DNA of 64,000 nucleotides from Ignisphaera sp. (GCA_038821645.1 JAWBDT010000005.1:26182-90181); one strand, 5' to 3'; shown: positions 5,616 through 56,375, counted from the stretch's first letter. A program made the numbers and translations. The notes: generated by a model not told the origin, from the letters alone.

Positions 5616-6134
5616 CTAATCTTTAATTAATAGATTGCTACATCCAATAATTCCTAAGACTATCTTGCCATATTCAATACTATCAAATATTCGAATTCTG
5701 TCTTCACCAATCTTTGTCTTTAAGTAATCGACGTAAAATTGATTTAGATACGAATCATGAGTCTCATACACGAAACTGCATTTAGTATTCTCTAAAACAT
5801 TTCTCAATACTTTTGAAGTACATTCATTAATTGAATAAACAAGTAGAAGTTTATGTCTATCTGAAAATCTTGAAAGATACTTATTTAGTACTGTATGTAT
5901 TTGTCTTTCTGCAAAAAACCTTATGTAGAATTCTAGCTCTGGCTTTCTTGCTACATTCTTCTTAGTTTCCACAGCTTTAACAGTATTAAAGAAAGCTAAC
6001 ACGATATTCTGCCATGGTGCCTTGAGCCCTTGGAGCAACATACACAATCTTACTCCACTACATAATTCATTAACTTTTGTACAAATTTCTTCATATTGAT
6101 CTGACTCACATTGAATAAATGCTAACAGTATCAA
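5616..6134 (-). CDS. cgi121: KEOPS complex subunit Cgi121-like protein
   Basis: KNVARKPELEFYIRFFAERQI resembles the Cgi121 signature; directly downstream of Urm1 as in crenarchaeal clusters. Confidence 0.65.
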   Translation of the reverse strand: MILLAFIQCESDQYEEICTKVNELCSGVRLCMLLQGLKAPWQNIVLAFFNTVKAVETKKNVARKPELEFYIRFFAERQIHTVLNKYLSRFSDRHKLLLVYSINECTSKVLRNVLENTKCSFVYETHDSYLNQFYVDYLKTKIGEDRIRIFDSIEYGKIVLGIIGCSNLLIKD

Positions 6135-6412
6135 ATAGATCCTCCATGGGCTATAGGTACAATTGTTACAATGTCCTCATTCTTTACTACAATATTGCTT
6201 ATTCCACCATAAACGTTAATGTCAATATCGTTAACTAATATCAAGTATTCATTTTGAAAATCACTATCATCAAATATTTTTTTGAGTTCAGATACAGCAT
6301 CAACAAGTCTAGCGAAAAAAATGTGTAGAGGTTCCTCGCCAGGAATCTCTACATCTATTTCAGATAAACCTAATCTTGATCTTAAATGACCTAGAAATCT
6401 TACCTTGACTAT
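6131..6412 (-). CDS. Ubiquitin-like Urm1/SAMP (MoaD/ThiS family) protein, apparent ATA start, ends ...PIAHGGSI
   Basis: Not in ORF track. 93-aa beta-grasp pattern (I)VKVRFLGHLRSRLG...YLILVNDIDI...DIVTIVPIAHGG; in-frame TAG immediately precedes ATA; GGGTGA RBS 5 nt upstream. Confidence 0.85.
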   Translation of the reverse strand: MVKVRFLGHLRSRLGLSEIDVEIPGEEPLHIFFARLVDAVSELKKIFDDSDFQNEYLILVNDIDINVYGGISNIVVKNEDIVTIVPIAHGGSI

Positions 6413-6434
6413 CTATGTCACCCTTTGTTCCTAA

Positions 6435-6638
6435 TCACGACTCTGATTGTCTTTCTCTTAATTTCACCAGATGCGTAATGTATCCTGCAATCTGATTACG
6501 TAACTTCTTGGATTTTGTACTAACTAATTTAGAAACTAACTCTTTATTGTATTGAAATTCCGGCTTAAACATATCTGGATATAATGTTAATAACTTTCGT
6601 GCAGTTCTTTTCACTATACCTATTCTAACTTTTCCCAT
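6435..6638 (-). CDS. rps17e: 30S ribosomal protein S17e
   Basis: MGKVRIGIVKRTARKL...SKKLRNQIAGYIT; start moved to ATG 6638 behind GGTGA RBS. Confidence 0.96.
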   Translation of the reverse strand: MGKVRIGIVKRTARKLLTLYPDMFKPEFQYNKELVSKLVSTKSKKLRNQIAGYITHLVKLRERQSES

Positions 6639-6804
6639 GATATCACCACATTCACTAGTTGTTACATTACCTATCAATATACACAGACATACTCTATAGA
6701 CCTAAATTAGCTCTAAGCTTTAAAGGTTTCATGGAAATGGACATGCTATTTTCATTAAAATTTATATAGAACCTCTGTAGATGAACGTTATTCGGTGTAG
6801 GTAT

Positions 6805-8469
6805 ATGGCTCAACAAGCTCTACCGCCCTATGAACCCACAGGCATACCTGTAATAATACTAAAGGAGGGATCTAGTAGAACCACGGGACGCGATGCATTA
6901 AGAGCTAACATGATGGCAGCTATAACTGTGGCTGAAATGATAAAAACGACATATGGACCTAGAGGAATGGATAAAATGCTTGTTGATGCATTAGGAGATG
7001 TGACAATAACAAATGATGGTGCTACTATATTAGACAAAATGGATGTACAACACCCAGCGGCAAAAATGCTAGTTCAGATAGCTAAGGGACAAGATGAAGA
7101 AGCTGGTGATGGTACTAAGACTGCTGTAATAATTGCAGGTGAATTACTGAAACGTGCTGAAGAACTTCTAGACAAAGGTTTACATCCTACAGTTATAGTT
7201 AGTGGATATAAGAAGGCTTTAGATTATGCATTAACAATAGCTCACAACATAGCTGAAGATGTTGATGTAGAAAGTTCTTCAGCTGATGAAATACTAAAGA
7301 ATGTTGCTATTTCATCCTTAACTAGCAAAGCTGTACATGGTGCACGAGAGTACATTGCAGACCTAGTTGTTAAAGCTGTTAGACAAATAGCTGAAAAGAG
7401 AGGTGAGAGATGGTACGTCGATATAGATAATGTTCAAATAATAAAGAAGAAAGGTGGAGGTCTACTAGACTCACAATTAGTATACGGTGTTGTTCTAGAT
7501 AAGGAGGTTGTTCATCCAGCTATGCCTAGAAGGGTAGAAAAAGCGAGAATAGCTTTACTCGATACTCCTCTAGAAATAGAAAAACCAGAAATTGATGCAG
7601 AAATAAGAATAAGCGATCCTACACAAATACGTAGATTCCTAGAAGAAAAAGAAAACATCCTCAATAGCTATGTCGAGAAGATTGCTTCTGTTGGTGCTAA
7701 TGTTGTTATTTGTCAGAAAGGTATTGATGATGTTGCTCAACACTATCTAGCTAAGAAAGGTATTATGGCTGTTAGAAGAGTCAAGAGAAGCGATATGGAG
7801 AAACTAGAAAGAGCTTCGGGAGGTAGAATAGTCAGTAATATTGAAGATCTAACAGAAAAAGATCTAGGTGAATGTGAATTAGTTGAAGAAAGAAAGGTTG
7901 GCGAAGATAAAATGGTATTCATAGAGAATTGTAAGAATCCTAAATCAGTATCAATAGTTCTTAGAGCAGGACTAGAAAGACTTGTTGATGAAGCAGAAAG
8001 ATACGCTAAAGATGCCTTGAGTGCTGTTGCAGACATCTTTAGACTACCTAAAATAGTGTATGGAGCTGGAGCCTTTGAAATTGAGCTTGCTAAATATATA
8101 AGAGATTACGCTAATAAGGTTGGAGGTAAGGAGGGTCTAGCTGTAGAAGCATTTGCAAGAGCTATAGAAGGTATTGTTGAGACTTTAGCTACAAATGCTG
8201 GACTGGATCCTGTTGAAATAATTATGAAGCTTAGAGCAGAACACATGAAGTCTGAAGGTAAATACATAGGATTCAATGTATTTACTGGCGAACTAATAGA
8301 TGCGAAGAAACTAGGTATAATAGATCCTCTCCTAGTTAAACTATCTGCACTAAAAGCAGGTACAGAAGCCGCTACTCTAATCCTCAGAATAGATGATGTA
8401 ATAGCAGCATCTAGGAGGAAAGAGGAAGAAAAGAAGAAAGAAGAAAAGAAGGAAGAGGAAGAAAAGTAA
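6805..8469 (+). CDS. thsB: Thermosome (group II chaperonin) subunit, probably beta
   Basis: [14 protein letters not shown] and [10 protein letters not shown] motifs; charged C-terminal tail. Likely start ATG 6805 (ORF track 6781). Confidence 0.93.
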
Positions 8470-8473
8470 ACAC

Positions 8474-10090
8474 TTATACTCTAGCTATTTTAACAAGTAT
8501 AGGTTCAGCTAACTCTGGTAAAACAACTAATGCCTCACCAGGTTTTAGTGCAGAAATCATTTTTTTATGTTCTTTTCTAAATGGTATAGCAGATACAACT
8601 GTCTTTATATCATTGGAAGACTTTAGTGAATGTATTATCTTTGTATTGGTATTTTTAAGTACCACAGATGATAGCATTGAAGGAGCTTGAGTAATTACAA
8701 CAAAACCTATATTCCATTTTCTTACTTCGGCAATCAAGTTAGACACGGGATTCCCTGAATATAGTACATTATGAGCTTCGTCAACTATTATCAATACTGG
8801 CTTCACTATGTTGTTATACTGAGCTTTAATTACTATGGATCTAATCAATAGAGATGATAAAACTCGCTTCACCCTGGTGTTCGGTATATACGATATATCG
8901 AATACATATATCTTTTCTTTATCGATAACTACTTTTTTAAGCTTGTTCCAATATATCTTCAGATAATCACTTGAAAGCGGCTTCAATTTCCTCAATAATG
9001 CTTCTCTCGATTCTGTAAACCATCGTGCAGATGCAGAACTGTTCTGCACAATATCTATTATCTCATCTATACAGTAGCTACTGCTAGTAGTACGTCGAGA
9101 AACAATGTTTATAGCATCTTCTAATATATGGGCTTGAGGAGGCGTTAATTCTAATGCACTTTCCAGAATCTCTAAAAATGATAGAGGTTCTTTCTTTATC
9201 AACTCTTCAAAACTTAGTGGTTCTAAAATTGTTCCATTCAATGGATTTGTATAAACCATACTGTTTTTTAGTTGTATAAGCTCTTTGTATTCTCCATGCC
9301 AATCAAGCACTACTACGGCATAGCCATTTTCAGCAGATTTTTCCGCTATTATCGATGCTGTTGTTGATTTACCACTACCGGTAGAGCCAACGATAGCTAT
9401 GTGTCTAAATATATGATCATTATTAAGCGTAACAATAATCTTTGGATTAGAATACAAATAACCTAATGATATTGTTCCGTGACTGAATATAGATGATAAA
9501 TACTCGTATTCTTCAACAGTATTAATATTGTAAGAAGGATTCACAGATAGAGCATGTAGATGTACTGGTGTTTCTTCTTTTTCTCCTCTTTTTAGGATCT
9601 TAATTAAGTAATCAATTGGACTCTGTAGACCAAGACATTCGTTAAGCAATGCTAAAGGATCACTCTTAACTAAGCATTTTATTTCACCTTGTCCAAGGGT
9701 TTCTACTAATGCACAAATAGTATCTAGTTCTTTGAGTACCTCATCATTTGAGTTACACATTACAATAAGATTCGACTTGACACTATATGGATTAATGCAC
9801 GTCACAAATACATACTTTCTATTACTTGAGCTCCTATGATTCAAAACAGCAATAATATCTGAAACTCTACTGAGATACTGACCATCTCTAGCTTCATCAC
9901 CATTAGTAAGTACAAGCTCTAGTGTACCTATGAATAGATTTTTTCCATAAGGCTCAATATGTAGTTGAGCTAAACTATCAACTTTCTCAAGAAATATACT
10001 AACGTTTTTCCTCTTAATTATACCGACCCCAATATATGGAGATCTATTAAAGTGGTTTAAATAAAAATATAAACAGTACTTATTGTTCAT
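8474..10090 (-). CDS. HerA/VirB4/VirD4-like (DUF87) ATPase
   Basis: RHIAIVGSTGSGKST Walker A, LDWHGEY, IIVDEAHN Walker B, EVRKWNIG, ITQAPS; start uncertain. Confidence 0.85.
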   Translation of the reverse strand: MNNKYCLYFYLNHFNRSPYIGVGIIKRKNVSIFLEKVDSLAQLHIEPYGKNLFIGTLELVLTNGDEARDGQYLSRVSDIIAVLNHRSSSNRKYVFVTCINPYSVKSNLIVMCNSNDEVLKELDTICALVETLGQGEIKCLVKSDPLALLNECLGLQSPIDYLIKILKRGEKEETPVHLHALSVNPSYNINTVEEYEYLSSIFSHGTISLGYLYSNPKIIVTLNNDHIFRHIAIVGSTGSGKSTTASIIAEKSAENGYAVVVLDWHGEYKELIQLKNSMVYTNPLNGTILEPLSFEELIKKEPLSFLEILESALELTPPQAHILEDAINIVSRRTTSSSYCIDEIIDIVQNSSASARWFTESREALLRKLKPLSSDYLKIYWNKLKKVVIDKEKIYVFDISYIPNTRVKRVLSSLLIRSIVIKAQYNNIVKPVLIIVDEAHNVLYSGNPVSNLIAEVRKWNIGFVVITQAPSMLSSVVLKNTNTKIIHSLKSSNDIKTVVSAIPFRKEHKKMISALKPGEALVVLPELAEPILVKIARV

Positions 10091-10115
10091 AAACTGTAGA
10101 ATAGCTTAGAAGGTA

Positions 10116-10472
10116 ATGAATATGGAGTTCAGCTGTAAGGTAGTAGATGTTGCAGATTCGTATTTACCAAACGTCAATATACTGAATATTGATTGTGGTA
10201 TAGCGATAATAAAAATGGATATACATAGAGAACTTAACCTTGCTAGAAAAGGAGATTTAATTAACATAGGTATATACAAATCATTACCACCATATGTTGC
10301 GGGTAAGGATTTTTTAGCCCATGGTTACGTTATAACCAAGAAGAAAGATAACAACTATACAAACATTTACATAAGTTTATGGGGATATTTAGTAGTCATT
10401 AAAACTAACGAAATTAGATTAAATGAGTATCTAAATACTATGGATAAAGTATACATAAAACTGTGGAAATAG
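10116..10472 (+). CDS. rpoG: DNA-directed RNA polymerase subunit Rpo8 (RpoG)
   Basis: OB-fold sized protein with DFLAHGYV and ISLWGYLV motifs; upstream of SmAP and tgtA as in Crenarchaeota. Confidence 0.75.
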   Translation: MNMEFSCKVVDVADSYLPNVNILNIDCGIAIIKMDIHRELNLARKGDLINIGIYKSLPPYVAGKDFLAHGYVITKKKDNNYTNIYISLWGYLVVIKTNEIRLNEYLNTMDKVYIKLWK

Positions 10473-10617
10473 TTATCTACAAAATAATGATAAGATACAA
10501 AGAGAGTAACATGCTCTAGTTTGGGAAATGTAGCAATATTTACAGCATATCATACGGATTAATAATACTTATTATATCTTGTTTAGAAGTAGATATCGTA
10601 ACTTAGGTGAACTCACT

Positions 10618-11058
10618 ATGAGTTATGTCACGCGAAGCATCTCTGGTGAACTTTCACGTTTAATGGATAAAAAAGTTATAGTAAGACTGGTAGACGGAAA
10701 AGTCTATGTAGGTAAAATGCTATCCTTTGATCCTAACACGCTTCATATAGTATTAGGTGATGCAGAAAGTAATGATGGAAAGAAGTTTTACCGCATAATT
10801 ATTAGTGGAACAAGAGTTTCTGAGATTCTTATAGAAGAGCAGCCACTTTTTGATGCTGAAGAATTTGCCACGATTCTAACATCAAAATTGGGCCTCAGAC
10901 CTGATGTAATTAAGGTTCTACATGATGTTAATGTAGTAGTAGTGTACGACAGAATAAAGGTTAGTGAATCTGGTGTTGAAGGTGCTGGAAGTTTTGCCCA
11001 GAGAATATACGAAGTATATACAGAATATATAGAGAATAAAAAGAGAGGTGCAAAATAG
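10618..11058 (+). CDS. Sm-like archaeal protein with C-terminal extension (SmAP3-type Lsm)
   Basis: Sm1/Sm2 motifs (VIVRLVDGKVYVGKMLSFD...HIVLGDA...IIISG) plus about 60-aa extension; start ATG 10618 behind GGTGA. Confidence 0.88.
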   Translation: MSYVTRSISGELSRLMDKKVIVRLVDGKVYVGKMLSFDPNTLHIVLGDAESNDGKKFYRIIISGTRVSEILIEEQPLFDAEEFATILTSKLGLRPDVIKVLHDVNVVVVYDRIKVSESGVEGAGSFAQRIYEVYTEYIENKKRGAK

Positions 11059-12644
11059 ATTGTTTTGAGGTAAAGGATGTAGATCTAGCAGCTAGAATAG
11101 GTAAGATTAAGACAAAACGAGGTGTGATTGAGACACCATATATTTTTCCTGTTGTAGATCCAACATTAAAGAATCAATTCGTATCTCTTAATGATATTCG
11201 TAGGATTGGATTTAATGCTATTATAACTAATGCATACTTGCTTAAGAAGCGATTACAAAAAGTTGAAGATATTCATAGTGTTTTGAATTTTGATGGAGTA
11301 GTTATGACTGATTCTGGAGCTTATCAGCTACTTAGATATGGCAATATAGATATAACTAATGTTGAGATAGTTAATTATCAGTGCGAAATTGGTAGCGATA
11401 TAGGTGTAATACTCGATGTCCCTACACCTTATGATGCGCCATATGAAAAAGCATTAGAAAGTGCTGAAATAACGTTTCAGAGAGCTATTGAAGTACAAGA
11501 TATAATTGAAAAGTGTACAAATACACTCTGGACATTACCGATACAGGGAGGTACACATCTAGAGATTTTACAAAAATATGCTATAAAATCTGATAGCATA
11601 GTTGGATATGGATATAGTCTATTCGCATTAGGCAGCCCTACAACACTCCTAGAGAACTATATGTTTGATAAAGTTATAGAAATGATAGTTACAGTAAGAC
11701 TCAACATACGTCCTTCGTATCCTCTTCACCTTTTTGGTGCAGGTCATCCACTCATCATGCCTTTCGCAATAGCCTTGGGTGTAGATATTATGGATTCTGC
11801 AAGCTATATTCTATACGCTAAAGATGGACGTTACATGACTAGAAAAGGTACCTATGCTGTAAAAGAATTATCGTATTTTCCGTGCTCATGCCCTGTATGT
11901 TCTAAATATACGGTTGAGGAATTCAATAAACTACCTAAACAAGATAAATGGAAACTTTTAGCGTTACATAATCTCTATACATTGTTTAGAGAATTAAATG
12001 AGATAAAAGAATGCATTAAAGAGGGAAGACTTTGGGAATATTTAGAAGAAAAAGCAAGATCTCATCCAGCAGCTAAGAGAGCATTTGAAACAATTAAAAA
12101 GAATCTAGAGTACATTTACAGAAGAACTCCACGTGAAAAGCCTAAGGGAAAAGCTCTCTTCATCTTATCTGAAGACTCTATATACAATCCCAAGTTAATG
12201 TTAGCAAGAAGAGATATTCTTTCCAGAATTTCAAGAATTCCAACAAAAAAGAAATGCATAATATTTGCACCATTAACAACCAAGTCATCGCCTAAAGGAT
12301 TATATAAAGCTACTACAAAAGAATGTCATCTTTATTTCTACTACCCGATACTGGGCCTAATCCCTTACACTTTGATCAATAGCTACCCCTTCTCACAATT
12401 TGAGGCATACAATGAGTTTTCATATAGTGTCATAAAAGATCTAGCTTACACATTTATAGAATATATAATGAATTTGTATAAAAACCTTACCCATATAGTT
12501 GAGGTAACGCTATACATACAAAACAACGTTGAATGGCAATATAGATTTGCGGAAACAGTTAAAGAATATCTACAAATATTAAATCAAAAAGGAATAGGAA
12601 TAAAGATAAAGATATTGAATCTAGGTAATAACCCGACATATTGA
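11055..12644 (+). CDS. tgtA: Archaeosine tRNA-guanine(15) transglycosylase, apparent ATA start
   Basis: MTDSGAYQ, HLFGAGHP, DSASY and CSCPVC motifs. The conserved N-terminus FEVKDVDLAARIGKIKT lies upstream of the ORF-track GTG (11124); the frame is closed by TAA at 11037, so start placed at ATA 11055. Confidence 0.93.
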   Translation: MDCFEVKDVDLAARIGKIKTKRGVIETPYIFPVVDPTLKNQFVSLNDIRRIGFNAIITNAYLLKKRLQKVEDIHSVLNFDGVVMTDSGAYQLLRYGNIDITNVEIVNYQCEIGSDIGVILDVPTPYDAPYEKALESAEITFQRAIEVQDIIEKCTNTLWTLPIQGGTHLEILQKYAIKSDSIVGYGYSLFALGSPTTLLENYMFDKVIEMIVTVRLNIRPSYPLHLFGAGHPLIMPFAIALGVDIMDSASYILYAKDGRYMTRKGTYAVKELSYFPCSCPVCSKYTVEEFNKLPKQDKWKLLALHNLYTLFRELNEIKECIKEGRLWEYLEEKARSHPAAKRAFETIKKNLEYIYRRTPREKPKGKALFILSEDSIYNPKLMLARRDILSRISRIPTKKKCIIFAPLTTKSSPKGLYKATTKECHLYFYYPILGLIPYTLINSYPFSQFEAYNEFSYSVIKDLAYTFIEYIMNLYKNLTHIVEVTLYIQNNVEWQYRFAETVKEYLQILNQKGIGIKIKILNLGNNPTY

Positions 12645-12800
12645 AAGTTTTATTCGATTTCGATCTATCATCATATAAACAAACCAGCTATAGTCTACTC
12701 TAGTTAAACTAGGCACCTATAACATCGCTATTCTATTTCATATTTAATTCAGTGAGAGATATTAAAGTTAAAATACTACAAAACAGAATACCAGTAGTAG

Positions 12801-12858
12801 ATGATGAAGAAGAGCCGATGTGATACCTAAAGGTTATGATCTTATTATCCTCAGCTGA
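12801..12858 (+). ncRNA. Box C/D guide sRNA candidate
   Basis: C ATGATGA (12801), 12-nt guide AGAAGAGCCGAT, D' GTGA, C'-like ATGATCT, 12-nt guide TATTATCCTCAG, D CTGA (12855); intergenic. Confidence 0.6.
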
Positions 12859-13169
12859 TGTTGAATTATATATCAAATAAGTTATAGAGATAAATTGCTA
12901 ATCAGACCTATACTTCTGTATAGCGTGTAGGACAATACTGTTGTAAAACTATATGAACATAAGAAAATTCTATTAACTATAGTATCAGACATCATTTACA
13001 GAAATAAATTCATTCTACTTTACTTTATCATTCCTATGAATGATTATGTTTTGTTGATAAACTCTTGGTATACTTAACATGAATTAATCTGATTGTATTA
13101 GATACTGATGTATCAAGAAAATATTATGTAAGCTAAAGATAAAATCTGTTAGGTAATATCTTTTACTTA

Positions 13170-14678: not shown

Positions 14679-14848
14679 TATAATTACCCTAGAGCATTTA
14701 TGTCTTGATTAATGAATCCAACTTATGCTTAGAGATAATATGTATTCATGAAGCTATAGATTAAAATTATTGACTATCAATATAAGAGTACTTAATAAAG
14801 CTAGAGATCATCTAGAGTTAATGTGAGATTACAGGAGAAGATACATAG

Positions 14849-16138: not shown

Positions 16139-16190
16139 ATTAAAAAGTGATTATATGAACTAAATATTTAAACTAAATTAAACAAAAATA

Positions 16191-16445: not shown

Positions 16446-16798
16446 ATTAATACTATAACTAGACCTTAGTCACAATTTTAGATTATTCAAACTTAATATC
16501 ACCAAATCAACTACTAAAATATGTCTTATAAATATATAAGTAATGAAGCCTTACATTACTTAACATAATTTTGATGATTTTCCTCTCCAATTAAGTGGAG
16601 ACCTTGTTATATGTTCCATAGGCTTAGAGTTTGGTATATAATTCAATAAAATTTTGAACATATGTTTTAATTGTTACTCAAATTCTATATTAAGAATGTA
16701 ATTTTGGTAAGATAGTGAGATACGGATAAGTCAAAACATTATCTACCAACATGCATAACATAAACACTTTTATACTTTTGTATACATTTGTACCTTAA

Positions 16799-44711: not shown

Positions 44712-44722
44712 GTGAATCTCCG

Positions 44723-46500: not shown

Positions 46501-46504
46501 AACT

Positions 46505-46996: not shown

Positions 46997-47082
46997 CTAT
47001 ATACCACAATCTGTGCATAGTGTGATTAACAGGATATTAACTTATATCAGATTCTTTACATAAATGTCTAGGTAGAATAGCT

Positions 47083-48138: not shown

Positions 48139-48195
48139 TATATTTAATAAGACTTTATATAGTTATTGTGTTGCACAAAATATCAAATACAATGA

Positions 48196-48960: not shown

Positions 48961-48966
48961 ATTAAG

Positions 48967-49341
48967 CTATGGTTGGTGTACCTTTAATAGCTTTCTCAAA
49001 GTTGATGAAAATCCTTCATATACTATCTCCTCAACAATCTTAGCTAAAATTTTTGAATCTACTTCAAGTTCTACAACCTTATTGACTTTTTCAGCTATCT
49101 TAAATCCTACAACATGATAACATGGATTCTCTCTTTTTCTAGATAAATAGTTTATTACAAAATCATCACATGTACAGAATCTACAAGGTGCAACTATGTA
49201 GTCTCTCTTTAATCCCTTAAATACATAAAATTTGAATTCTCTACACTTTATCACAATAAATCGTTTGCTATTAAGAGCTTCTTCAATCTTATCATAACCT
49301 GTAAACTTTTGGAGTATCTGTTCTCTACAGAGGTACTCCAT
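48967..49341 (-). CDS. SWIM zinc-finger protein
   Basis: FCTCDDF...PCYH. Confidence 0.8.
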   Translation of the reverse strand: MEYLCREQILQKFTGYDKIEEALNSKRFIVIKCREFKFYVFKGLKRDYIVAPCRFCTCDDFVINYLSRKRENPCYHVVGFKIAEKVNKVVELEVDSKILAKIVEEIVYEGFSSTLRKLLKVHQP

Positions 49342-49419
49342 ACATATCTGTGACTCTATGTCTACTAAAATAGTTTAAATAGTCTCTACAAAATATCGAA
49401 ACCTGGTGAGTGATAAAGT

Positions 49420-49593
49420 ATGTCTAGATCAGGTAAGAAAGGGCGTAGAGCTGTTGGTGTATCAAGTTACGTAGGACTTGTTAGATTCTATGAAGAAGTG
49501 GAAGAACAGATAAAGATTCCTCCATATGTAATACTATTGCTAGCGTATATAACATCGATAACCATTCTAGCACTTAGGATACTCTTACGTTAA
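49420..49593 (+). CDS. secG: Protein translocase subunit Sec61-beta (archaeal SecG)
   Basis: Not in ORF track (57 aa): MSRSGKKGRR...GLVRFYEEVEEQIKIPP followed by one TM. Confidence 0.9.
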   Translation: MSRSGKKGRRAVGVSSYVGLVRFYEEVEEQIKIPPYVILLLAYITSITILALRILLR

Positions 49594-49686
49594 GTATTAA
49601 TATTCACTAGATTTATACACTTATCAACTGTTACAAGATCTGTATACTGGAATAGATATTTAATTGGTATAACAAAAACACTTACT

Positions 49687-50018
49687 AGCTAGGCCCGATC
49701 CACAAGTAGCTACGGAGTCTAGAGCTCCGAGGAAACACCGCCCTCTACATGGATCCGGAGCTCCGCAAGGAGCCGGGGTAAAACCCCGGGCTCTGGCACA
49801 GAAACGACATGTCCATAAACCAATGAAGATGATGCGGTGAGGATCCCCAGGTAACTGGGGATCAGTTAACCCGTTGATGAGGTTTATGGGAGCAGTGAAA
49901 CGGCCATCCTCCGGAGAGTAAGGTCCGATCTCTATGAGCTCCATGCGAGAGATCGGGAATCCGCTTAGCCAAATGCTACTGAATACAGAAGGCGGGTTAT
50001 TGTGGATCGGGCCTAGCT
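49687..50018 (+). ncRNA. rnpB: RNase P RNA
   Basis: GC-rich island; long P1 stem AGCTAGGCCCGATCCACAA/TTGTGGATCGGGCCTAGCT; GAGGAAACACCGCCC and ACAGAAGGCGGGTT (P4); GCACAGAAA and GTGAAACGGCC conserved elements. Confidence 0.95.
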
Positions 50019-50326
50019 CAATTTTGTTAGATACTTTTCTACAGGAAACTGAGGGGTTAGTAATACCTAGTTCAAATACTTATTGTTGCATTATTTTGTT
50101 CTCTTTTAATCACAGAGACCCCTCAGCTTGTATATACTGATTATGAGCATTTATTTTTGAAATACTTTGAATTATATTATAAAGTTTGTATAATTGTGTC
50201 ATCATATTGTTAATAAAACATAACATAATATCGTTATGAGTCATTAACTATTATTGTGTAAAATATTGTAACAATTTCTTCACTAGAAACAGAGGGGTAT
50301 CTAGATATGTGGGACAAATGTGTGTT

Positions 50327-51748
50327 CTATAGGAAACTGAGGGGTTCCATAAGAAAGCTTACGTCAGTTACAGAAAGCGATAGTTGTGGAGGATGCATAG
50401 AACGTTCTCTTCCATATCTCTTTAATGGTTTAACAAGATGCTTTAATTCACTTGGTGGTGGTATATAAAGTCCTTCAACTATATCTCTTGTAGTTATAAT
50501 GCAGTCGAGAGGTGTATTGTGAGCAACATATCGACATTTTTTGCAGCTGTAACCTTTACCAAATCCCTTCTTAGTCATTCTCTTTCCACAGATAGGGCAT
50601 CTAGGGGCTTTACATATATATAGTGGAGCTAGTTTCTCTACAAATAATTTTTCTACATGTAGATAGGATGTATTACGCCAAGATTTTACATGTCCTTGTA
50701 CTACAACAATATCTCCAGGAATAAGTCTTCTAGCTATGGAAACCAGTCCTGAAGGTTTAAAGAATATTAAATCTATTGATCCAGAATCATCAATTCCTTT
50801 AATAATAACATGTCCCCCTTGTATAATTCTGGGAAATTCAGATATCCTTAACCTAATTTTTGCAGTTCTATAGATTCTTAGATCGGATACTCTTCTATTA
50901 ACAGCATGTGCATCTGTTGCTTGATTTGATCGAAATATTGTCCAAGCGGCTACAGGTTCACATGGTTTTATTATATTTAGAGCTTTTTTAAGATCATAAA
51001 TATCGTCGCCTCTAACGCCATAGAGAATAGGATCATAGCCATGGGGTGTTATTAGAACTCTATTTGTTTCGTAATCTATGTTATTAAATGTTGTGTCATT
51101 TGTGATATCGTCGAAGAGTTTGATAGAGTCTATGTCTATACATCGCTCCTTATTGTAAAACTGTTTAGAACGATAAACAATTAACTCATACGTGTAATCA
51201 GAAGCTGTAGCAAGCCAGCCAATAGCTGCTGTAGCACCAACAAGTCCTCGGCCACGGAATTCATTGCTTATGTATACATTCTCTCTCTCAGTAAACTTCA
51301 AAAGTTTTTCGAACACTATAGATGGTAGAACAATATCTGTCAATGAATTCATATATATCTTAGAGAATATTGGAGGTATAGAACCTATTACTACGATAGC
51401 ACCAGGATCTTCATAGTAGTGATGTATATCTATATCTACTGCTTCACTAAGTTTTTTGTAATATTCTAGAAGGATAGAGTCTATGACATCAAATATTTTG
51501 TCTATATATGAACAAGGAATTTTGATATGTAGTGCTACAGCACCGTTTCCTCGAGTCTTCCATGGAATTGAAGGATTTAATCTAACTAGATTTGGATAAT
51601 CAATGAAGATGAGATCTATGTAATTGGCTAGTTTATGTATAAGAAATGTAGCTGTATGTGTTGTACAACCATATTGATGCAGATCAAAATCATCTAAACC
51701 TATGTGTATTGTACATAGGTAGTCTTTGTATTCTGTTTCTAACATCAC
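50327..51748 (-). CDS. tiaS: tRNA(Ile2) agmatinylcytidine synthase
   Basis: HIGLDD, GCTT, LVRLNPSIPWKTRGNGA, PILYGVRG, SNQATD, C-terminal Zn ribbon, HLVKP. Confidence 0.94.
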   Translation of the reverse strand: MMLETEYKDYLCTIHIGLDDFDLHQYGCTTHTATFLIHKLANYIDLIFIDYPNLVRLNPSIPWKTRGNGAVALHIKIPCSYIDKIFDVIDSILLEYYKKLSEAVDIDIHHYYEDPGAIVVIGSIPPIFSKIYMNSLTDIVLPSIVFEKLLKFTERENVYISNEFRGRGLVGATAAIGWLATASDYTYELIVYRSKQFYNKERCIDIDSIKLFDDITNDTTFNNIDYETNRVLITPHGYDPILYGVRGDDIYDLKKALNIIKPCEPVAAWTIFRSNQATDAHAVNRRVSDLRIYRTAKIRLRISEFPRIIQGGHVIIKGIDDSGSIDLIFFKPSGLVSIARRLIPGDIVVVQGHVKSWRNTSYLHVEKLFVEKLAPLYICKAPRCPICGKRMTKKGFGKGYSCKKCRYVAHNTPLDCIITTRDIVEGLYIPPPSELKHLVKPLKRYGRERSMHPPQLSLSVTDVSFLMEPLSFL

Positions 51749-52059
51749 TATTGCACAGACGACATCTCATTCTTTATATTACTTGATACAACAATCATGG
51801 TTATAGTCGATCTAACTTTTGGTATTCTTCTTATTTTTGATGTCACTATATCCTTTAGCTTTTCGATAGTATCAGCCTCTATTTCAATGAATAAATCGTA
51901 TATACCATAAACAAGACTAGCGTTTTTAACACCTTCGATATTCTTTATGTCGGCTAGCACCTCTTCTTCAGCACCTACATCAGTATTTACTAATACCAAG
52001 GCTCTTGGCATAACCTTTGTACACCTTAGCGTACTAGCATAAAAAGGGTATAAAAACAC
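51748..52059 (-). CDS. Stand-alone Lrp/AsnC ligand-binding (RAM) domain protein
   Basis: ALVLVNTDVGAEEEV...VYGIYDL...VRSTITMIV; probable start MPRALV. Confidence 0.88.
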   Translation of the reverse strand: MFLYPFYASTLRCTKVMPRALVLVNTDVGAEEEVLADIKNIEGVKNASLVYGIYDLFIEIEADTIEKLKDIVTSKIRRIPKVRSTITMIVVSSNIKNEMSSVQ

Positions 52060-52135
52060 ATTTGAATCTAGGATAATAGAGATTTAGATGGCTAAACCAA
52101 AATTATTGTTTTAGTATCGTTATAGGTAACTATGT

Positions 52136-52714
52136 ATGATTAAGATATATGTGGTAACGAAAGGAGAAGACAACCCAGATATGTGTACAGGTGAAAAGCT
52201 GATTAGGAGGGGGTTAGCCAAGCGATTAACAAACTTGAGACAGTTACCGGATTGTGCAATTGTGTTAAATCCTTTTGCTTATACGTATATTAAATATAGT
52301 GATAGAATATTGTTAGAGAAATGTGGTTTAGTAGCTATAGATGTTTCATGGAAAAGAGGTATAAAGTTCTTGAAGATCATGAAGAGGGGGGTTCATAGAG
52401 TTCTACCTGTGCTTATAGCAGCCAATCCTACAAACTATGGCAAACCATTCAAACTTAGTACAGTAGAAGCTATTGCTGGAGCTCTATACATAACGGGCTA
52501 TAGTGATTATGCAGATACAATATTGAAGCATTTTAGATGGGGAGAACAATTTATAGAGATTAATAGAGCTAAGCTAGAGAAATACTCACAAGCTGAGAAT
52601 GATGAAGAGATCGAGATTATACAGATGGAGCTATTGGGTATAGATAGAAACGTGTTGAAAGGTTTAAAACTTATAGACATACTACATAGAATGATTACAC
52701 AAGAAATCTCATAG
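52136..52714 (+). CDS. tsr3: 16S rRNA aminocarboxypropyltransferase Tsr3
   Basis: DNPDMCTGEKL, AIDVSW, LPVLIAANPTNYGKPFKLSTVEA, FRWG. Confidence 0.93.
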   Translation: MIKIYVVTKGEDNPDMCTGEKLIRRGLAKRLTNLRQLPDCAIVLNPFAYTYIKYSDRILLEKCGLVAIDVSWKRGIKFLKIMKRGVHRVLPVLIAANPTNYGKPFKLSTVEAIAGALYITGYSDYADTILKHFRWGEQFIEINRAKLEKYSQAENDEEIEIIQMELLGIDRNVLKGLKLIDILHRMITQEIS

Positions 52715-52785
52715 AAACCAATAGATATTGTTAACAGTAAAATTAAGTAAAGCTTAATTTCTGTCTTCTACTACTGCACATGACA

Positions 52786-52859
52786 GGGCCCGTCGTCTAG
52801 CCTGGTAGGACGCCGCCCTCACGAGGCGGAGGTCCGGGGTTCGAATCCCCGCGGGCCCA
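52786..52859 (+). tRNA. tRNA-Val(CAC)
   Basis: GGGCCCG acceptor stem, anticodon arm CCGCC-CTCACGA-GGCGG, GGTTCGAATCC; no intron. Confidence 0.97.
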
Positions 52860-53076
52860 TTAACTATGCTGTATATGAATGATTTCTACTCCTCTACATA
52901 TAGATAAGGTTTTATTGTATTATCATAGACTTAGAGAAACAATACATCTTTAATCACTCTTTCTATCGCTATATGTTATGATGTTTGTAGAATAGAATTG
53001 AAGTAACTTGGTTAGTTATAAAGATATTTTGTATAAAATTTATACAAGCTTATATTTTCGGTCTACATGGAAGTAG

Positions 53077-53298
53077 ATGGTGCTAGAGAATATGAGTAGC
53101 TCGACAGTACTATTACCTATATTTGAGCCAGCAGTTATAAGGTTGTGTTCAAGTTGCAAGAAGACTATAGAACCTCATGAGAAAGCTGTAAGCTTTAAGT
53201 GTCCTAGTTGTGGTGCAGTAACTATCTGGAGATGTCAGAGGTGTAGAAGTCTTTCATTACCATACAAATGTCCTAATTGTGGATTTGAAGGTCCTTAG
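53077..53298 (+). CDS. Zn-ribbon protein (DUF1610/HVO_2753 family)
   Basis: Four CxxC pairs ending YKCPNCGFEGP; upstream of EF-1beta. Confidence 0.9.
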   Translation: MVLENMSSSTVLLPIFEPAVIRLCSSCKKTIEPHEKAVSFKCPSCGAVTIWRCQRCRSLSLPYKCPNCGFEGP

Positions 53299-53308
53299 GT
53301 GAAGCCAC

Positions 53309-53590
53309 ATGCCTGCAATGGTTTTAGCAGTCATTAGGGCATATCCAAAAGAACTTATGGACAACATGTCACAACTTGTTGCAAAAGTACAAGATGTCCT
53401 GAAAGAGAAGGGATATGACTTACTGAAATGGGAAGCTGTAGATATAGCGTTTGGATACAAAGCTGTAGATCTCTATGTAATGATGCCTGAGGAACAAGAA
53501 AGAGGAACAGAGGATGCTGAAGAAGCTATTAAATCTGTAGACGAGATAGATAATGTTGATGTAGTTTACGTAACAAGAATAAGTACATAA
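53309..53590 (+). CDS. ef1b: Translation elongation factor aEF-1 beta
   Basis: DIAFGYKA...GTEDAEEAI...V. Confidence 0.9.
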   Translation: MPAMVLAVIRAYPKELMDNMSQLVAKVQDVLKEKGYDLLKWEAVDIAFGYKAVDLYVMMPEEQERGTEDAEEAIKSVDEIDNVDVVYVTRIST

Positions 53591-53603
53591 GGGCAATACA
53601 TAC

Positions 53604-53825
53604 TTGTTCTTTAGAAGAAAAATAGATTTCAAAATTCTTGAATACTTGAAAGCGAAGGGTAAAGCTACAGATAGAGAGCTATATGATGCTCTATCAAAAG
53701 AATTCAACATTTCATACAATCAATTACTATCCATAATAATGCAATTAGAAATAGAGGGCTTTATTAGTGTTGTTTTTAGTAGAGACTACATGACTATAAT
53801 GCTCAAAAGGATTTTAAATACTTAA
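53604..53825 (+). CDS. Small winged-helix protein
   Basis: ILEYLK...TDRELY...LMQLEIEGFISV-type wHTH pattern. Confidence 0.65.
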   Translation: MFFRRKIDFKILEYLKAKGKATDRELYDALSKEFNISYNQLLSIIMQLEIEGFISVVFSRDYMTIMLKRILNT

Positions 53826-53877
53826 GCATCATAAAAATATAGAAACTCTTGTTAGTTAACTAGTACTGGTTGTATCT

Positions 53878-54942
53878 ATGGGTGTGAACCTAAAGGATAT
53901 AATACCTTCTTCGTGTCGTCAAGAAGTAGATGACCTAAAGGCTTTGGCTCAAAGGGTTATAGCACTTGATGCATATAATGCTCTATATCAATTCTTAGCC
54001 GCAATAAGACAACCAGATGGAACTCCGCTTATGGATAGCAAAGGTAATGTAACAAGCCATTTAAGTGGTCTCTTCTATAGAACTATAAACCTTATGGAAT
54101 ACGGTATAAAACCTATCTATGTATTTGATGGAAAACCTCCGGAACTTAAGAGAGAAGAACTTGAGAGGCGACGCACAAGAAAAGAAAAAGCGTTGGAAAT
54201 GGCTGTAAAAGCATATAGCGAAGGATTAAAGAAAGAAGCAGCTAAATACGCTGTTCAAGCACTATACCTTACAGAACCAATGGTACGTAATGCGAAAAAG
54301 CTTTTAGAGGCTATGGGTGTACCATACGTTGAAGCTATAGGTGAAGGTGAAGCTCAAGCTGCCTATATAGCTAAAAAGGGATTGGCATGGGGTACAGGTA
54401 GCCAAGATTATGATTCACTACTTTTTGGTGCACCTAGGCTTGTAAGGAATCTCACTATTACTGGTAAAAGAAAGCTTCCAGGAAAAGATATATACGTAGA
54501 GATAAAGGTTGAGGTAATAGAGTTAGATAAGTTGTTAAAGGCGTTGAGCATTACTAGAGAACAGTTAATAGATGTGGCTATACTCATAGGTACAGACTAT
54601 AATCCTGATGGTGTAGAAGGTATAGGTCCAAAGACAGCTCTTCAGTTAATTAAAAGTCATGGAACAATAGAAAAAGTAATCAAATTGTTACAAAATCCAC
54701 AATTTCCTGAAGATCCTTTAAAGATAAGAGAGTATTTTCTTAATCCACCTGTGGTAGACATACATGACATAGAGTGGAGGGAACCTGACAAACAAGCTGT
54801 TATAGAGATATTGGTTAAAGAACATGATTTCTCTATAGATAGAGTTGAAAATGGATTAAAGAGGTTAGAGAAAGCATATAAAGAATACATTAGAGGTACT
54901 AAAGCCACCTTAGATCAATGGTTTATTGCTTCGAAAAAGTAG
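53878..54942 (+). CDS. fen: Flap endonuclease 1
   Basis: DAYNALYQFL, TSHLSGLFYRT, EGEAQAA, SQDYDSLLFG, GTDYN, C-terminal PIP-like KATLDQWF. Confidence 0.97.
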   Translation: MGVNLKDIIPSSCRQEVDDLKALAQRVIALDAYNALYQFLAAIRQPDGTPLMDSKGNVTSHLSGLFYRTINLMEYGIKPIYVFDGKPPELKREELERRRTRKEKALEMAVKAYSEGLKKEAAKYAVQALYLTEPMVRNAKKLLEAMGVPYVEAIGEGEAQAAYIAKKGLAWGTGSQDYDSLLFGAPRLVRNLTITGKRKLPGKDIYVEIKVEVIELDKLLKALSITREQLIDVAILIGTDYNPDGVEGIGPKTALQLIKSHGTIEKVIKLLQNPQFPEDPLKIREYFLNPPVVDIHDIEWREPDKQAVIEILVKEHDFSIDRVENGLKRLEKAYKEYIRGTKATLDQWFIASKK

Positions 54943-54970
54943 AGCAAGAATTAAATAAATTTTCTGAACC

Positions 54971-55534
54971 TTAGTAGCTAATCTTTATTCTATAAATCTC
55001 ATTGTATATCGTACTAAGGAGTGTTTCGATCTCACTTGTTTTAAGTGGTAATAGTTTTGCATCTGATTTAGGTATTCTAACTATATGTTGAACTGAGCCA
55101 TCGGGAGTCCATACACTATCTATTCCCTGTATGCGGGCAGGAGATATGAGTTGTGCTATAAATGTCTTAGGATCAGCTGTTCTTTGAATAATTCTTACCC
55201 GCATACCTATTCTCTCACTTAATGTCTTTCCAAGCCTTATTATTGCAGATCTAGGTGTATCTTCTTGAAGTTCCAGAACTATTATCAGTAATGAATCTAT
55301 CTTATAGCTTTTTACATAACTCGAGTTCTTCAGAAACTTAAAGTTACCTTCATTCTCTATATCAAGAAGATGCTTCATAACCTCTACCTCAAATTCCGAG
55401 TGTTCCCCACTTTCAACTATTCTTCTACATCTAGGGCACAAGACACCGCTTCTTATACAGATACTGTCCAATGGTATTCTCATACTGTTACTGTCCCTCA
55501 GCAAATCTGTGTCCATTTCTAGTTTGTTTTTCAT
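54971..55534 (-). CDS. NusA-like KH-domain protein with N-terminal CxxxxxLCPRC
   Basis: [19 protein letters not shown]...WTPDGS. Confidence 0.75.
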
Positions 55535-55621
55535 TTAAGCCTTTACAACCGTTCAGCTTATAAATTTAAGTATTCTTTTTACCGTCCATATGTATGGGTC
55601 TGTAAATATCTGGTGAACAAT

Positions 55622-55789
55622 ATGCCTCTAGCTGATCCTGAACTAGCAAAAATCGTAGAAAAGAGGCTCCTAGACAAAAAAGTATGTAGGAGGTGTGGAG
55701 CATTAAATCCCCCAACAGCTACACGTTGTAGGAGATGCAGAAGCGATAATCTAAGGCCTAAGAAGAAAGCTGTTGCCATGAAGAAGTAA
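55622..55789 (+). CDS. rpl40e: 50S ribosomal protein L40e
   Basis: Not in ORF track (55 aa): [31 protein letters not shown]. Confidence 0.96.
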
Positions 55790-55808
55790 AGCTGTATAAA
55801 GGTGTATC

Positions 55809-56375
55809 ATAACGTATACTATTAAACATGTTGCAAAGGTTTTAAAGCAACTAAAGGATGTAGGTATAGAGGGTATAATTATAGGAAGTACATGTCTGTC
55901 TATAGCTCTAGGTAATATTGATATTGAAGGAGATATAGATCTATTTACAACATCTATAAGCCCTTTCTTTGATGAAGAAAGGATAAGACAGATAGCTTAT
56001 CAGAAGGGATGGTCTACTGGTACCACAGAGCTTGGTACACCATCTATAATACTTAATGTTGAAGGAATAGACATAACTGTAGAGCTGTATGAGAACATTC
56101 TTGATTTCTATATACCTTCAGAATCTATAGACATTTGCCGACAGAGTATAGAAGTAGATGGAACTGAGATTACATATGTTGCAGTAGAGTGCTGGATTGT
56201 TTTTAAAGCTAGAAGAGGATCTGATAGAGATATACTATCACTTTCAACTATTAAACAGTTTGTAGATGAAGGCGTGCTACCTATAAACAAAACACTTTTA
56301 GAAAAGATGATCGAACTATATGAAGATGATAAAAGGTACATATATAACAGGTTAAAGAACCTGAACTTGATTTAA
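55809..56375 (+). CDS. Nucleotidyltransferase (DUF2204-like, Pol beta superfamily), apparent ATA start
   Basis: Not in ORF track. 188-codon open frame with IIGST...GDIDLF NTase motif, ELYENILDF and FKARRG; in-frame TAA at 55797; AGGTG RBS 4 nt before ATA. Confidence 0.85.
   Translation: MTYTIKHVAKVLKQLKDVGIEGIIIGSTCLSIALGNIDIEGDIDLFTTSISPFFDEERIRQIAYQKGWSTGTTELGTPSIILNVEGIDITVELYENILDFYIPSESIDICRQSIEVDGTEITYVAVECWIVFKARRGSDRDILSLSTIKQFVDEGVLPINKTLLEKMIELYEDDKRYIYNRLKNLNLI

Follow-up and report, generated by a model that had tools for sequence, protein, structure and literature searches.

How are conserved genes translated when their reading frames hold no canonical start codon? The question is raised by a 64,000-nucleotide stretch of DNA (the window) from the genome of an Ignisphaera-like hot-spring archaeon (G000, 1.57 Mb in a 31-contig draft). 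Three of its genes, encoding a Urm1-like protein, an archaeal tRNA-guanine transglycosylase (tgtA), and a nucleotidyltransferase, have no ATG, GTG, or TTG between the in-frame upstream stop and the conserved or domain residues, and each occurs in one copy in G000 with full-length open frames in relatives. A sequence-only reading of the window had proposed AUA as the start of all three. The sequence facts on which it drew (ATA positions, upstream stops, GGTG(A) motifs, an ATAG overlap at tgtA, and the start of rps17e) were all correct, and alignment of orthologues upheld the AUA start for the Urm1-like gene and pointed to another codon in the other two. The Urm1-like locus comprises the following features:

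6131-6412, minus strand: Urm1/MoaD/ThiS-like beta-grasp gene, 93 codons plus stop, C-terminus ...HGGSI, predicted start ATA at 6412-6410
6418-6422, minus strand: GGTGA Shine-Dalgarno (SD) motif of this gene, 5 nt before the ATA
6435-6638, minus strand: rps17e, canonical start GGTGA-TATC-ATG, stop 22 nt upstream of the Urm1-like ATA

Between the SD motif and the Urm1-like ATA, and abutting the latter, is an in-frame TAG (6415-6413); the first in-frame ATG, GTG, or TTG is codon 57 of 93. Codon 1 aligned as ATA in 15 of 16 genus loci, a count that, like the others given here, overstates independence since orthologues share ancestry; ATG stands in the sixteenth locus, and at this position other genera carry ATG, TTG, or GTG. 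GGTG precedes the ATA by 6 to 8 nt in the orthologues (6 nt in the window), within the canonical range, and codon 2 varies. The Pfam Urm1 match scored 20.3 bits, below the cut-off of 21.8, and the GG is followed by Ser-Ile; a 69% identical homologue (P0003) is named as a MoaD/ThiS family protein and carries PF02597. Judging from these alignments, translation of the Urm1-like gene very probably begins at AUA 6412, and the gene may be co-transcribed with rps17e.

At the nucleotidyltransferase, the conserved codon is the one next to the proposed ATA:

55812-56375, plus strand: DUF2204 nucleotidyltransferase gene, predicted start ACG at 55812-55814, not ATA at 55809
55801-55804, plus strand: GGTG SD motif of this gene, with spacers of 7 nt to the ACG and 4 nt to the ATA

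The ATA (55809-55811), with an in-frame TAA at 55797-55799, was rejected as the start because it is kept in 1 of 16 genus loci, the closest relative having GTA; its 4-nt spacing is rare. The adjacent codon is ACG in 13 of these loci and ATG in the other three, and GGTG followed after 7 to 8 nt by ACG recurs in the orthologues, with a spacer that varies and contains in-frame stops. No canonical codon occurs before codon 159 of 191 in the stop-to-stop frame, and the DUF2204 profile (PF09970; 155.8 bits, above cut-off) matches from residue 6 over profile positions 3-180 of 181. Initiation at ACG 55812 is therefore likely. Spacing also separates the three proposed AUA starts. Among 287 canonical starts taken as a reference, the distance from GGTG to the start has a mode of 7 nt and a range of 4 to 9 nt, the extremes being rare (4 nt in 16 and 9 nt in 11). 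The ATA of the Urm1-like gene stands at 6 nt, those of tgtA and the nucleotidyltransferase at the rare spacing of 4 nt.

A single ATA proves little, since ATA is the most frequent codon (62.8 per 1000), and some of the listed ATA sites must be due to chance, given that control spacings yield 4 to 6 ATA per interval. The near-cognates ATA, ATT, ATC, ACG, and CTG as a class nonetheless exceed chance behind GGTG. In G000, 31 near-cognates versus 64 other codons were counted 6 to 8 nt past GGTG, compared with 22 versus 165 at control spacings of 12 to 17 nt (odds ratio 3.6, p=3.4e-5), and the same test in a complete relative (G015) gave 32/105 versus 29/245 (p=6.6e-4). The genome scan suggested earlier returned a surplus of about 20 genes in the 1.57 Mb of G000. 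This supports initiation away from AUG at a notable rate, although AUA is joined in it by ACG, CTG, ATT, and ATC. The length of the SD match is 5.29 at near-cognate sites, 5.25 at canonical starts, and 4.76 at other codons. An in-frame stop lies a median of 3 codons upstream of canonical starts too, and such a nearby stop is partly a by-product of the SD motif because GGTGA followed by 6 bases places TGA in frame at codon -3. Pfam domains begin 5′ of the first canonical codon in TGT, DUF2204, AA_kinase, Flavodoxin, L7Ae, Endonuclease V, and UDG genes. A genome from another family showed a similar near-cognate signal over 400 kb, and the trait may therefore not be restricted to the Ignisphaera lineage.

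Among individual members of the class, the initiation-factor gene aIF1A has ATA in all 19 family loci; of the 11 outgroup loci listed, 10 have a canonical codon (ATG, TTG, or GTG) in frame just upstream and L243 has only CTG. Compared with G015, CTG is shared by both genomes in the RIO kinase gene, ATA in C13:28431, and ATT in C11:48696, whereas ATG in G015 corresponds to ACG in the genes for uracil-DNA glycosylase (UDG) and endonuclease V and in C15:19417, to CTG in the isopentenyl phosphate kinase (IPK) gene, and to ATC in rpl30e. This comparison over-calls near-cognate starts: three flagged cases, aIF1, dihydroorotate dehydrogenase, and C4:32069, were discarded as false on account of conserved leaders or overlapping genes. 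One further candidate lies in the window:

8474-10021, minus strand: HerA-like ATPase gene, ATA 10021 followed by ATT 10018, a weak fourth candidate

The ATA is present as had been noted, and the product matches Pfam DUF87/HerA at 100.8 bits. The next canonical codon would remove about 32 aligned residues, and the sole in-frame ATG upstream precedes a TATA-like stretch (read by eye). The stop of a mini-ORF (TTG GGG TCG GTA TAA) overlaps the ATA as ATAA. The ATA-ATT pair is shared only by the window and its closest relative, and inspection by eye showed a canonical start in frame in at least 7 of the 14 remaining orthologues.

Near-cognate initiation behind an SD motif probably explains this class of genes without a canonical start. 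GGUG(A) would pair with the 16S 3′ end and position the 30S subunit, whereupon initiator Met-tRNA would take a codon one base off AUG (AUA, ACG, CUG, AUU, or AUC) 6 to 8 nt downstream. Such weak starts would be expected to hold output low, as for the repair enzymes and the gene downstream of rps17e; alternatively, they may tie output to the stringency of start selection, as proposed for aIF1A. In Sulfolobus extracts, aIF1 is reported to discriminate against AUU (PMC4705826), and near-cognate starts should accordingly be inefficient here, aIF1 being present, which is a point against them. Relaxed start selection through aIF1 had been offered as a cause, but loss of the factor is excluded, since all 31 genomes examined contain aIF1 (PF01253), which starts with a canonical ATG. 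Nor did the initiator tRNA, whose inspection had been suggested, appear other than ordinary by eye in G015 (A1-U72, a G-C-rich anticodon stem, and a CAU anticodon).

For tgtA, no in-frame near-cognate is conserved across the family, and a different arrangement emerged:

10618-11058, plus strand: SmAP (Sm-like) gene, stop TAG at 11056-11058, 1 nt before the tgtA TTG and overlapping the ATA as ATAG
11047-11050, plus strand: GGTG upstream of tgtA, with spacers of 4 nt to the ATA and 9 nt to the TTG
11055-11057, plus strand: in-frame ATA of tgtA, not conserved, with an in-frame TAA (11037-11039) 6 codons upstream
11060-11068, plus strand: TTG-TTT-TGA, proposed UUG start, UUU slip codon, and zero-frame stop; the coding frame would resume in +1 at GAG 11067
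11061-12644, plus strand: tgtA coding frame, from the TGT codon to the stop

The gene has a match in 30 of 31 relatives. Its product aligns with Pfam TGT (PF01702; 253.8 bits, above cut-off) over profile positions 2-356 of 357, position 2 falling on residue 12, and the first canonical codon in frame is a GTG 23 codons further on. In 16 family loci lacking an in-frame ATG or other start, ATA precedes the TGT codon in only four. The element conserved at the start in all 16 is an out-of-frame TTG within TTG-TTT-[T/C]GA-G, and the dinucleotide preceding it is variable (GA, GT, AT, AG, AA, or CC). As the zero-frame codon after TTG-TTT, 5 loci have TGA and 11 have CGA; CGA is rare (2.4 per 1000) and readable, since tRNA-Arg(UCG) is present. 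Canonical homologues have an in-frame ATG or TTG followed by TTY-GAR (M-F-E), and the tgtA of a genome from another family (L024) reads ATG-TTT-TTT-CGA-G. The distance from the SmAP stop to the TTG in relatives is 1 to about 5 nt (mostly 1 to 2), and the frame of the stop relative to tgtA varies.

We propose that tgtA initiates at the out-of-frame UUG 11060, just past the SmAP stop. The ribosome would decode UUU as Phe and then move +1 on U-UUU, prompted by a next zero-frame codon that is a stop (UGA, in the window) or the rare CGA (in relatives), and would continue at GAG to give M-F-E-V-K-D, the N-terminus of canonical homologues. Re-pairing of the slip codon one base forward, on UUU or UUC, is possible in 16 of 16 family loci. 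The [T/C]GA is not independent evidence for the slip because it is forced by the conserved Phe-Glu. The GGTG lies 9 to 10 nt before the TTG, at or past the edge of the canonical range, which counts against the slip, as do the readability of CGA and the availability in the window of an in-frame ATA overlapping the SmAP stop. Also against it, a genome-wide scan for other +1 frameshift cases gave none further that was convincing. In its favour, the start-proximal slip site of aRF1, conserved in 44 of 49 loci, suggests that the lineage uses such slips. On balance, we lean modestly towards a UUG start and a +1 slip in tgtA.

In the window genome alone, the in-frame AUA 11055 could instead be a restart codon, with ribosomes that end SmAP at UAG reinitiating on AUAG. 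The overlap is real and also occurs in loci L002 and L005, and at thrB, a thrC-like gene, and the HerA-like gene an ATA[A/G] likewise overlaps the stop of a mini-ORF led by an SD motif. However, a stop overlap arises wherever A or G follows ATA, so that the chance rate is high; L003 and L004 have GTA where the four loci have ATA, and eight loci (listing region L006-L011, L014-L016) hold no near-cognate at all between the upstream stop and the TGT codon. We regard such a restart as unlikely, and the slip at the conserved UUG as the better account of tgtA.

Turning to the class as a whole, the SD motif might set the P site by itself, with codon identity at the right distance hardly mattering. 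Some genes fit this description in having no near-cognate at the right spacing: a P-loop NTPase, for example, has GTT 7 nt after GGTG, and a 2-hydroxyacid dehydrogenase has TTT at 7 nt in both genomes. Enrichment at 6 to 8 nt is nevertheless limited to one-mismatch codons, the other 54 codons numbering 64 against 87 and 78 at the controls, and the start codons of the Urm1-like, nucleotidyltransferase, and aIF1A genes are kept while their spacers vary, which makes this explanation improbable. Shorter products from the next in-frame canonical codon are very improbable. Such a start is what NCBI annotates for one homologue of the Urm1-like protein, whose sequence is given as MRFLGH... from a GTG three codons further down, as expected from the earlier remark that gene callers truncate such genes, but no more than 3 of the 16 genus loci have GTG as codon 4. 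In the window the next canonical codon is codon 57 of 93 in the Urm1-like gene, codon 159 of 191 in the nucleotidyltransferase, and 23 codons on in tgtA, and Pfam domains and orthologue alignments begin well before it. Editing of the mRNA to restore AUG, by A-to-I change of the third base or by C-to-U, deserves even less credence; the A-to-I form, raised as the more speculative option in the sequence-only reading, would suit AUA alone, and ACG, CTG, ATT, and ATC at the same spacing would require several different chemistries. We know of no archaeal case of such editing. Least credible, and contradicted by the orthologue comparisons, is the idea that ATG was misread as ATA during sequencing or assembly, or that the genes are pseudogenes in decay whose intact copies lie elsewhere. 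Draft though G000 is, the non-canonical codons recur in 13 to 19 separately assembled genomes including a one-contig genome, the frames are intact, conserved, and single-copy in G000, and 13 public runs each contain at least half of the words sampled from window positions 6000-11500 (a word match, not base level). Taken as a whole, near-cognate starts together with the tgtA slip are the likely explanation, on sequence grounds, for working genes that lack an in-frame AUG, GUG, or UUG.

The aRF1 gene has its own prfB-like +1 site, conserved in 44 of 49 distinct loci and laid out as a start, one to three codons, NTT, a stop, and a continuation in the +1 frame. Tentatively, and with some doubt, we suggest that start-proximal recoding is a regular control layer in Ignisphaera and neighbouring families. 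Weak AUA, ACG, and CUG starts would be under selection, with AUA on aIF1A letting the cell sense its own start-codon stringency, and a prfB-like +1 slip would operate in tgtA and likewise in aRF1 across several families. If so, aRF1 would provide Archaea with their first reported cellular case of programmed +1 frameshifting, and would take release-factor feedback loops for the first time beyond Bacteria and giant viruses.

NCBI genetic code table 11 lists ATA, ATT, ATC, and CTG as alternative initiation codons, the same four as here; ACG, to our knowledge absent from that table, is extra. Archaea are described as using AUG, GUG, and UUG starts (PMC4705826), and our literature search found no description of conserved, family-wide near-cognate use in archaea. 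A bacterial parallel is the autoregulated AUU start of infC (IF3), likewise a one-mismatch codon kept by selection behind an SD motif (PMC4705826), and its logic might extend to aIF1A, with AUA in 19 of 19 family genomes. Unlike infC, the present system is archaeal, with aIF1, aIF1A, and aIF2; aIF1A is the homologue of IF1 and not the fidelity factor, AUA and ACG take the place of AUU, and about 20 genes rather than one or two would be involved. Eukaryotic non-AUG initiation (CUG, ACG, and GUG, with stringency set by eIF1 and eIF1A) involves homologues of aIF1 and aIF1A and the same one-mismatch hierarchy, but here positioning would be by the SD motif and not by scanning and Kozak context. Known cases of termination-reinitiation coupling of the ATGA type, in archaea and bacteria, restart on canonical codons in the coding frame; the tgtA TTG is likewise close to the SmAP stop (1 to about 5 nt, mostly 1 to 2) and, unlike the restart codons of those cases, out of the coding frame. 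Recoding of the prfB kind has been stated to be absent from archaeal release factors (PMC3521657), and section 7 of a 2021 review lists no cellular +1 case in archaea (PMC8211752). As at the bacterial prfB site (CUU-UGA-C), UUU-UGA-G in tgtA and NUU-UAG-Y in aRF1 would re-pair one base forward on UUU while the A site holds a stop or slowly read codon, and a G-rich run resembling an SD motif lies upstream; unlike prfB, the host is archaeal, the site lies one to four codons past the start, and most tgtA orthologues carry the sense codon CGA in place of the stop.

The window belongs to contig C5 in an Ignisphaera sp. genome (G000; 1.57 Mb, 31 contigs, ~35% G+C), and at least 20 public sequencing runs, one of them an RNA run, match it. 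Four of its genes are considered here:

6412, minus strand: ATA of a Urm1/MoaD-like gene, downstream of rps17e
10021, minus strand: ATA of a HerA-like gene
11055, plus strand: ATA of tgtA, directly downstream of a SmAP gene
55809, plus strand: ATA of a DUF2204 nucleotidyltransferase gene

A sequence-only reading had proposed AUA initiation in the Urm1-like, tgtA, and nucleotidyltransferase genes, and its observation that canonical starts (ATG, GTG, or TTG) are missing is correct. The three ATA codons were found at these positions, each with an in-frame stop 1 to 6 codons upstream, a GGTG(A) Shine-Dalgarno (SD) motif 4 to 5 nt upstream, and no in-frame canonical codon ahead of conserved residues. 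The tgtA ATA does overlap the SmAP stop as ATAG, and rps17e does start as GGTGA-TATC-ATG. Throughout the genome, an SD at the preferred spacing (GGTGA plus 6 nt) contains an internal TGA in frame three codons before the start, so genes with an SD normally have an in-frame stop just ahead of the start, and such a stop is no special mark of these sites. Orthologues of each of the three genes were then fetched from 30 relatives, and their start regions were aligned codon by codon. The claim of noncanonical initiation proved right in kind, but of the three ATA codons only that of the Urm1-like gene survived this comparison.

In the Urm1-like gene, the aligned first codon is ATA in 15 of 16 genus loci and ATG in the remaining one, while other genera carry ATG, TTG, or GTG at the same position. 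GGTG lies 6 to 8 nt upstream of the ATA in the orthologues, with a variable spacer and a variable second codon. Nearby canonical codons are limited to a GTG at codon 4 in 3/16 loci; the NCBI annotation of a homologue starts there (MRFLGH...), which shows how gene callers truncate this gene. An in-frame GTG inside the SD itself (GTG ACA TAG ATA) was rejected as a start; it is not conserved and is a coincidence. At the other end of the protein, the C terminus (window positions 6131 to 6145, minus strand) reads HGG-SI, and homologues likewise end in Gly-Gly plus two or three residues (FA, CDC, KS); a protease would have to uncover the Gly-Gly ahead of conjugation or thiocarboxylation.

For the nucleotidyltransferase, the ATA is present in the window only (1/16 loci; the closest relative has GTA there), and the conserved codon is instead the adjacent ACG (13/16, with ATG in the other 3). 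This ACG lies 7 to 8 nt downstream of GGTG in 10 loci and is aligned with the ATG of sister species in 3 further loci. The spacers hold in-frame stops, e.g., TGA AAA ACG or TAG GGG ACG, so nothing upstream of the ACG is usable as a start. The alignment thus points to the ACG, rather than the ATA, as the codon at which translation starts. The HerA-like gene is a weaker candidate. Its ATA-ATT, which follows a mini-ORF ending on the ATA (ATAA), is shared by the window and the closest relative, and at least 7 of the other 14 orthologues were seen by eye to have an in-frame canonical start.

The whole genome was scanned for codons located 4 to 9 nt after GGTG at the head of a frame of 100 codons or longer; codons preceded by a canonical codon in that frame, or followed by one within 8 codons, were left out. 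Canonical starts (n = 287) peaked 7 nt after GGTG, and the codons one mismatch away from ATG, termed near-cognate, comprised ATA (19), ATT (10), ACG (5, 4 of them at 7 nt), CTG (4), and ATC (4). These codons were enriched at start spacing in both G000 and G015, a one-contig relative.

Near-cognate codons and other codons after GGTG at start spacing (6 to 8 nt) and at control spacing (12 to 17 nt)
G000: 31 near-cognate/64 other at 6 to 8 nt; 22/165 at 12 to 17 nt; odds ratio, 3.6; p = 3.4e-5
G015: 32 near-cognate/105 other at 6 to 8 nt; 29/245 at 12 to 17 nt; odds ratio, 2.6; p = 6.6e-4

In G000, the excess amounts to ~22 sites at 6 to 8 nt versus 207 canonical starts, and the mean SD complementarity at near-cognate sites (5.29) is close to that of canonical starts (5.25), with 4.76 for other codons. 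We infer that the SD would place these codons for mismatched pairing with the initiator tRNA. Individual examples were named where a Pfam domain reaches upstream of the first canonical codon or where the G015 orthologue aligns a start codon to the site.

Named candidate near-cognate starts in G000 (C, contig)
ACG: uracil-DNA glycosylase, endonuclease V, a methyltransferase, C15:19417
ATA: flavodoxin-like protein, radical-SAM protein, C13:28431
CTG: isopentenyl-phosphate kinase, RIO kinase, a dehydroquinase, Trm112-like protein
ATC: rpl30e
ATT: an Fe-S protein, C11:48696

A comparison of G000 with the whole of G015 gave 1255 reciprocal pairs, in 99 of which the first canonical codon of the G000 gene has 5 or more aligned residues ahead of it. 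This list over-calls: some entries are conserved leaders, rRNA shadow frames, or overlaps with the gene upstream. Flagged aIF1, dihydroorotate dehydrogenase, and C4:32069 were discarded as conserved leaders or upstream-gene overlaps. The window contributed 4 flagged frames out of 63 paired ones, and inspection revealed a normal ATG in one of the 4. In the genome G028, which belongs to another family, the initial 400 kb contained 9 near-cognate versus 40 canonical codons at 6 to 8 nt, suggesting that near-cognate starts may extend beyond Ignisphaera. Candidates from this stretch (L274 to L293) have plausible protein N termini, including, at 7 nt after GGTG, a CTG in a HEPN-like protein and an ATA in a 364-aa protein. 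Literature searches returned no report of AUA or ACG as start codons in Crenarchaeota. Since gene callers drop or shorten such genes, as in the truncated NCBI homologue, the metabolic and repair inventories of these genomes are incomplete.

Some genes showed other unusual arrangements. The homoserine kinase gene thrB (C16) and a thrC-like gene (C3) are preceded by SD-led mini-ORFs of 3 to 5 codons conserved in G015 (ATG CGC CAA ACA CTA TAG and ATG CTC CAA ACA CAT TAG; TTG GAA ACA TAA). The end of each mini-ORF coincides with or adjoins an in-frame ATA belonging to the main gene, giving an ATAG or ATAA overlap, and this arrangement may reflect termination-reinitiation on a near-cognate codon. 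A 2-isopropylmalate/citramalate synthase-like gene (C17) reads GTG GTT TAG AAA TCC (GTG GTC AAG AAA TCC in G015), with an in-frame TAG at codon 3 and no other start for 58 codons; readthrough, an error, or a different mode of starting could account for this. At SD spacing, neither a canonical nor a one-mismatch start is available in three genes: a 2-hydroxyacid dehydrogenase (C3; TTT at 7 nt plus an overlapping TTG, in both genomes), a P-loop NTPase (C11:26761; GTT at 7 nt), and C2:65128 (GG ATG T, with an out-of-frame ATG, in both genomes).

Several explanations other than near-cognate initiation were considered. Sequencing errors or pseudogenes are excluded because the codons recur in many genomes assembled separately, the frames are intact, and the genes are single copy. 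Initiation at downstream canonical codons would remove most of each protein. The A-to-I editing suggested earlier as a means of restoring AUG, like mRNA editing generally, cannot explain the mix of ACG, CTG, ATT, and ATC starts. Loss or alteration of aIF1 was rejected: aIF1 is present in 31/31 genomes with a canonical start, its flagged noncanonical start being a conserved leader followed by a normal ATG, and no obvious change in the machinery was found. G015 has three CAU tRNAs, one of which resembles an ordinary initiator by eye, and a search for unusual tRNAs found none.

One near-cognate start falls on an initiation-factor gene. The aIF1A gene (C3:61385-61699; loci L214 to L243) starts with ATA in 19/19 family genomes, 7 to 8 nt downstream of GGTG and with in-frame stops just upstream in many. 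Of the 11 outgroup loci listed, 10 carry ATG, TTG, or GTG in frame just upstream, and the remaining one, L243, has CTG alone. The RIO kinase gene directly downstream of aIF1A has its CTG start in both G000 and G015. In the usual description of archaeal initiation, the start codons are AUG, GUG, and UUG, and other codons are rejected by aIF1. A lineage that retains about 20 one-mismatch starts offers a natural system for examining how stringency is set and used. The aIF1A start recalls the AUU start of bacterial infC, as described in a passage of PMC4705826, and a comparable feedback role might be envisaged for it.

The tgtA family set comprised 18 loci, 2 with an in-frame ATG and 16 without. 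The in-frame ATA occurs in only 4 of these 16, which argues against it as the start; what is invariant instead is an out-of-frame TTG, all 16 loci reading N-TTG-T-TTY-GAR, while the two bases preceding the TTG are free (GA, GT, AT, AG, AA, CC). At eight loci, no near-cognate codon lies between the in-frame stop and TGT, seven of these having a single sense codon there (AGT, GTT, AAT, or GAT). Homologues outside the family have an in-frame ATG-TTC-GAG or TTG-TTY-GAR (M-F-E), so that the family tgtA resembles TTG-TTY-GAG plus one extra base. Initiation would then take place at UUG, 1 to ~5 nt (mostly 1 to 2) downstream of the SmAP stop, and UUU would be decoded next. With UGA (5 loci, window included) or CGA (11 loci) as the zero-frame codon in the A site, tRNA-Phe would be driven to slip +1 onto UUU or UUC; CGA is rare, at 2.4 per 1000 codons. 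The resulting protein would have the N terminus M-F-E-V-K-D, like canonical homologues. L024, a locus from another family, carries ATG-TTT-TTT-CGA-G at the start position.

Some observations count against a slip: GGTG is 9 to 10 nt from the TTG, tRNA-Arg(UCG) is present, an in-frame ATA is available in the window, and the conserved Phe-Glu forces [T/C]GA, which is thus no independent evidence. Nevertheless, UUG initiation with a +1 slip appears more likely than an in-frame ATA start. A SmAP-TgtA fusion by readthrough or frameshifting was rejected because the frame relation of the two genes differs among species. Genome-wide, no class of further "start plus one base" genes was found; the one extra match, a C9 membrane protein, has an in-frame ATG and no G015 orthologue. 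A metagenome scan for tgtA returned nothing beyond close copies and canonical distant homologues.

A second site, outside the window, bears on the tgtA slip. The aRF1 gene (C2:2791-3906) has no in-frame start, and 62 loci were fetched (L184 to L213 and L310 to L341), 49 of them distinct after removal of 13 duplicates. In 44 of the 49, drawn from several families and counting the doubtful L210, a start codon is followed by 1 to 3 codons, NTT, and a stop, usually TAG but TGA or TAA at a few loci, and the +1 frame continues TTT-AGY. At the other five loci, the gene starts normally in frame. Ignisphaera, Desulfurococcaceae, Thermosphaera, and "Sulfolobales archaeon" are among the names in the record titles; the motif is missing from the two Acidilobaceae loci. 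This start-proximal site has the same architecture as bacterial prfB. A passage of PMC3521657 describes such recoding as absent from archaeal and eukaryotic release factors, section 7 of a 2021 review (PMC8211752) lists no cellular +1 frameshift in archaea, and portions of PMC5009743 mention none. Literature searches found no later report of aRF1 frameshifting. Together, the tgtA and aRF1 sites would allow the long-sought programmed +1 frameshifting of Archaea to be tested in a relative that can be cultivated, and that of aRF1 looks like an autoregulatory frameshift of the prfB type.
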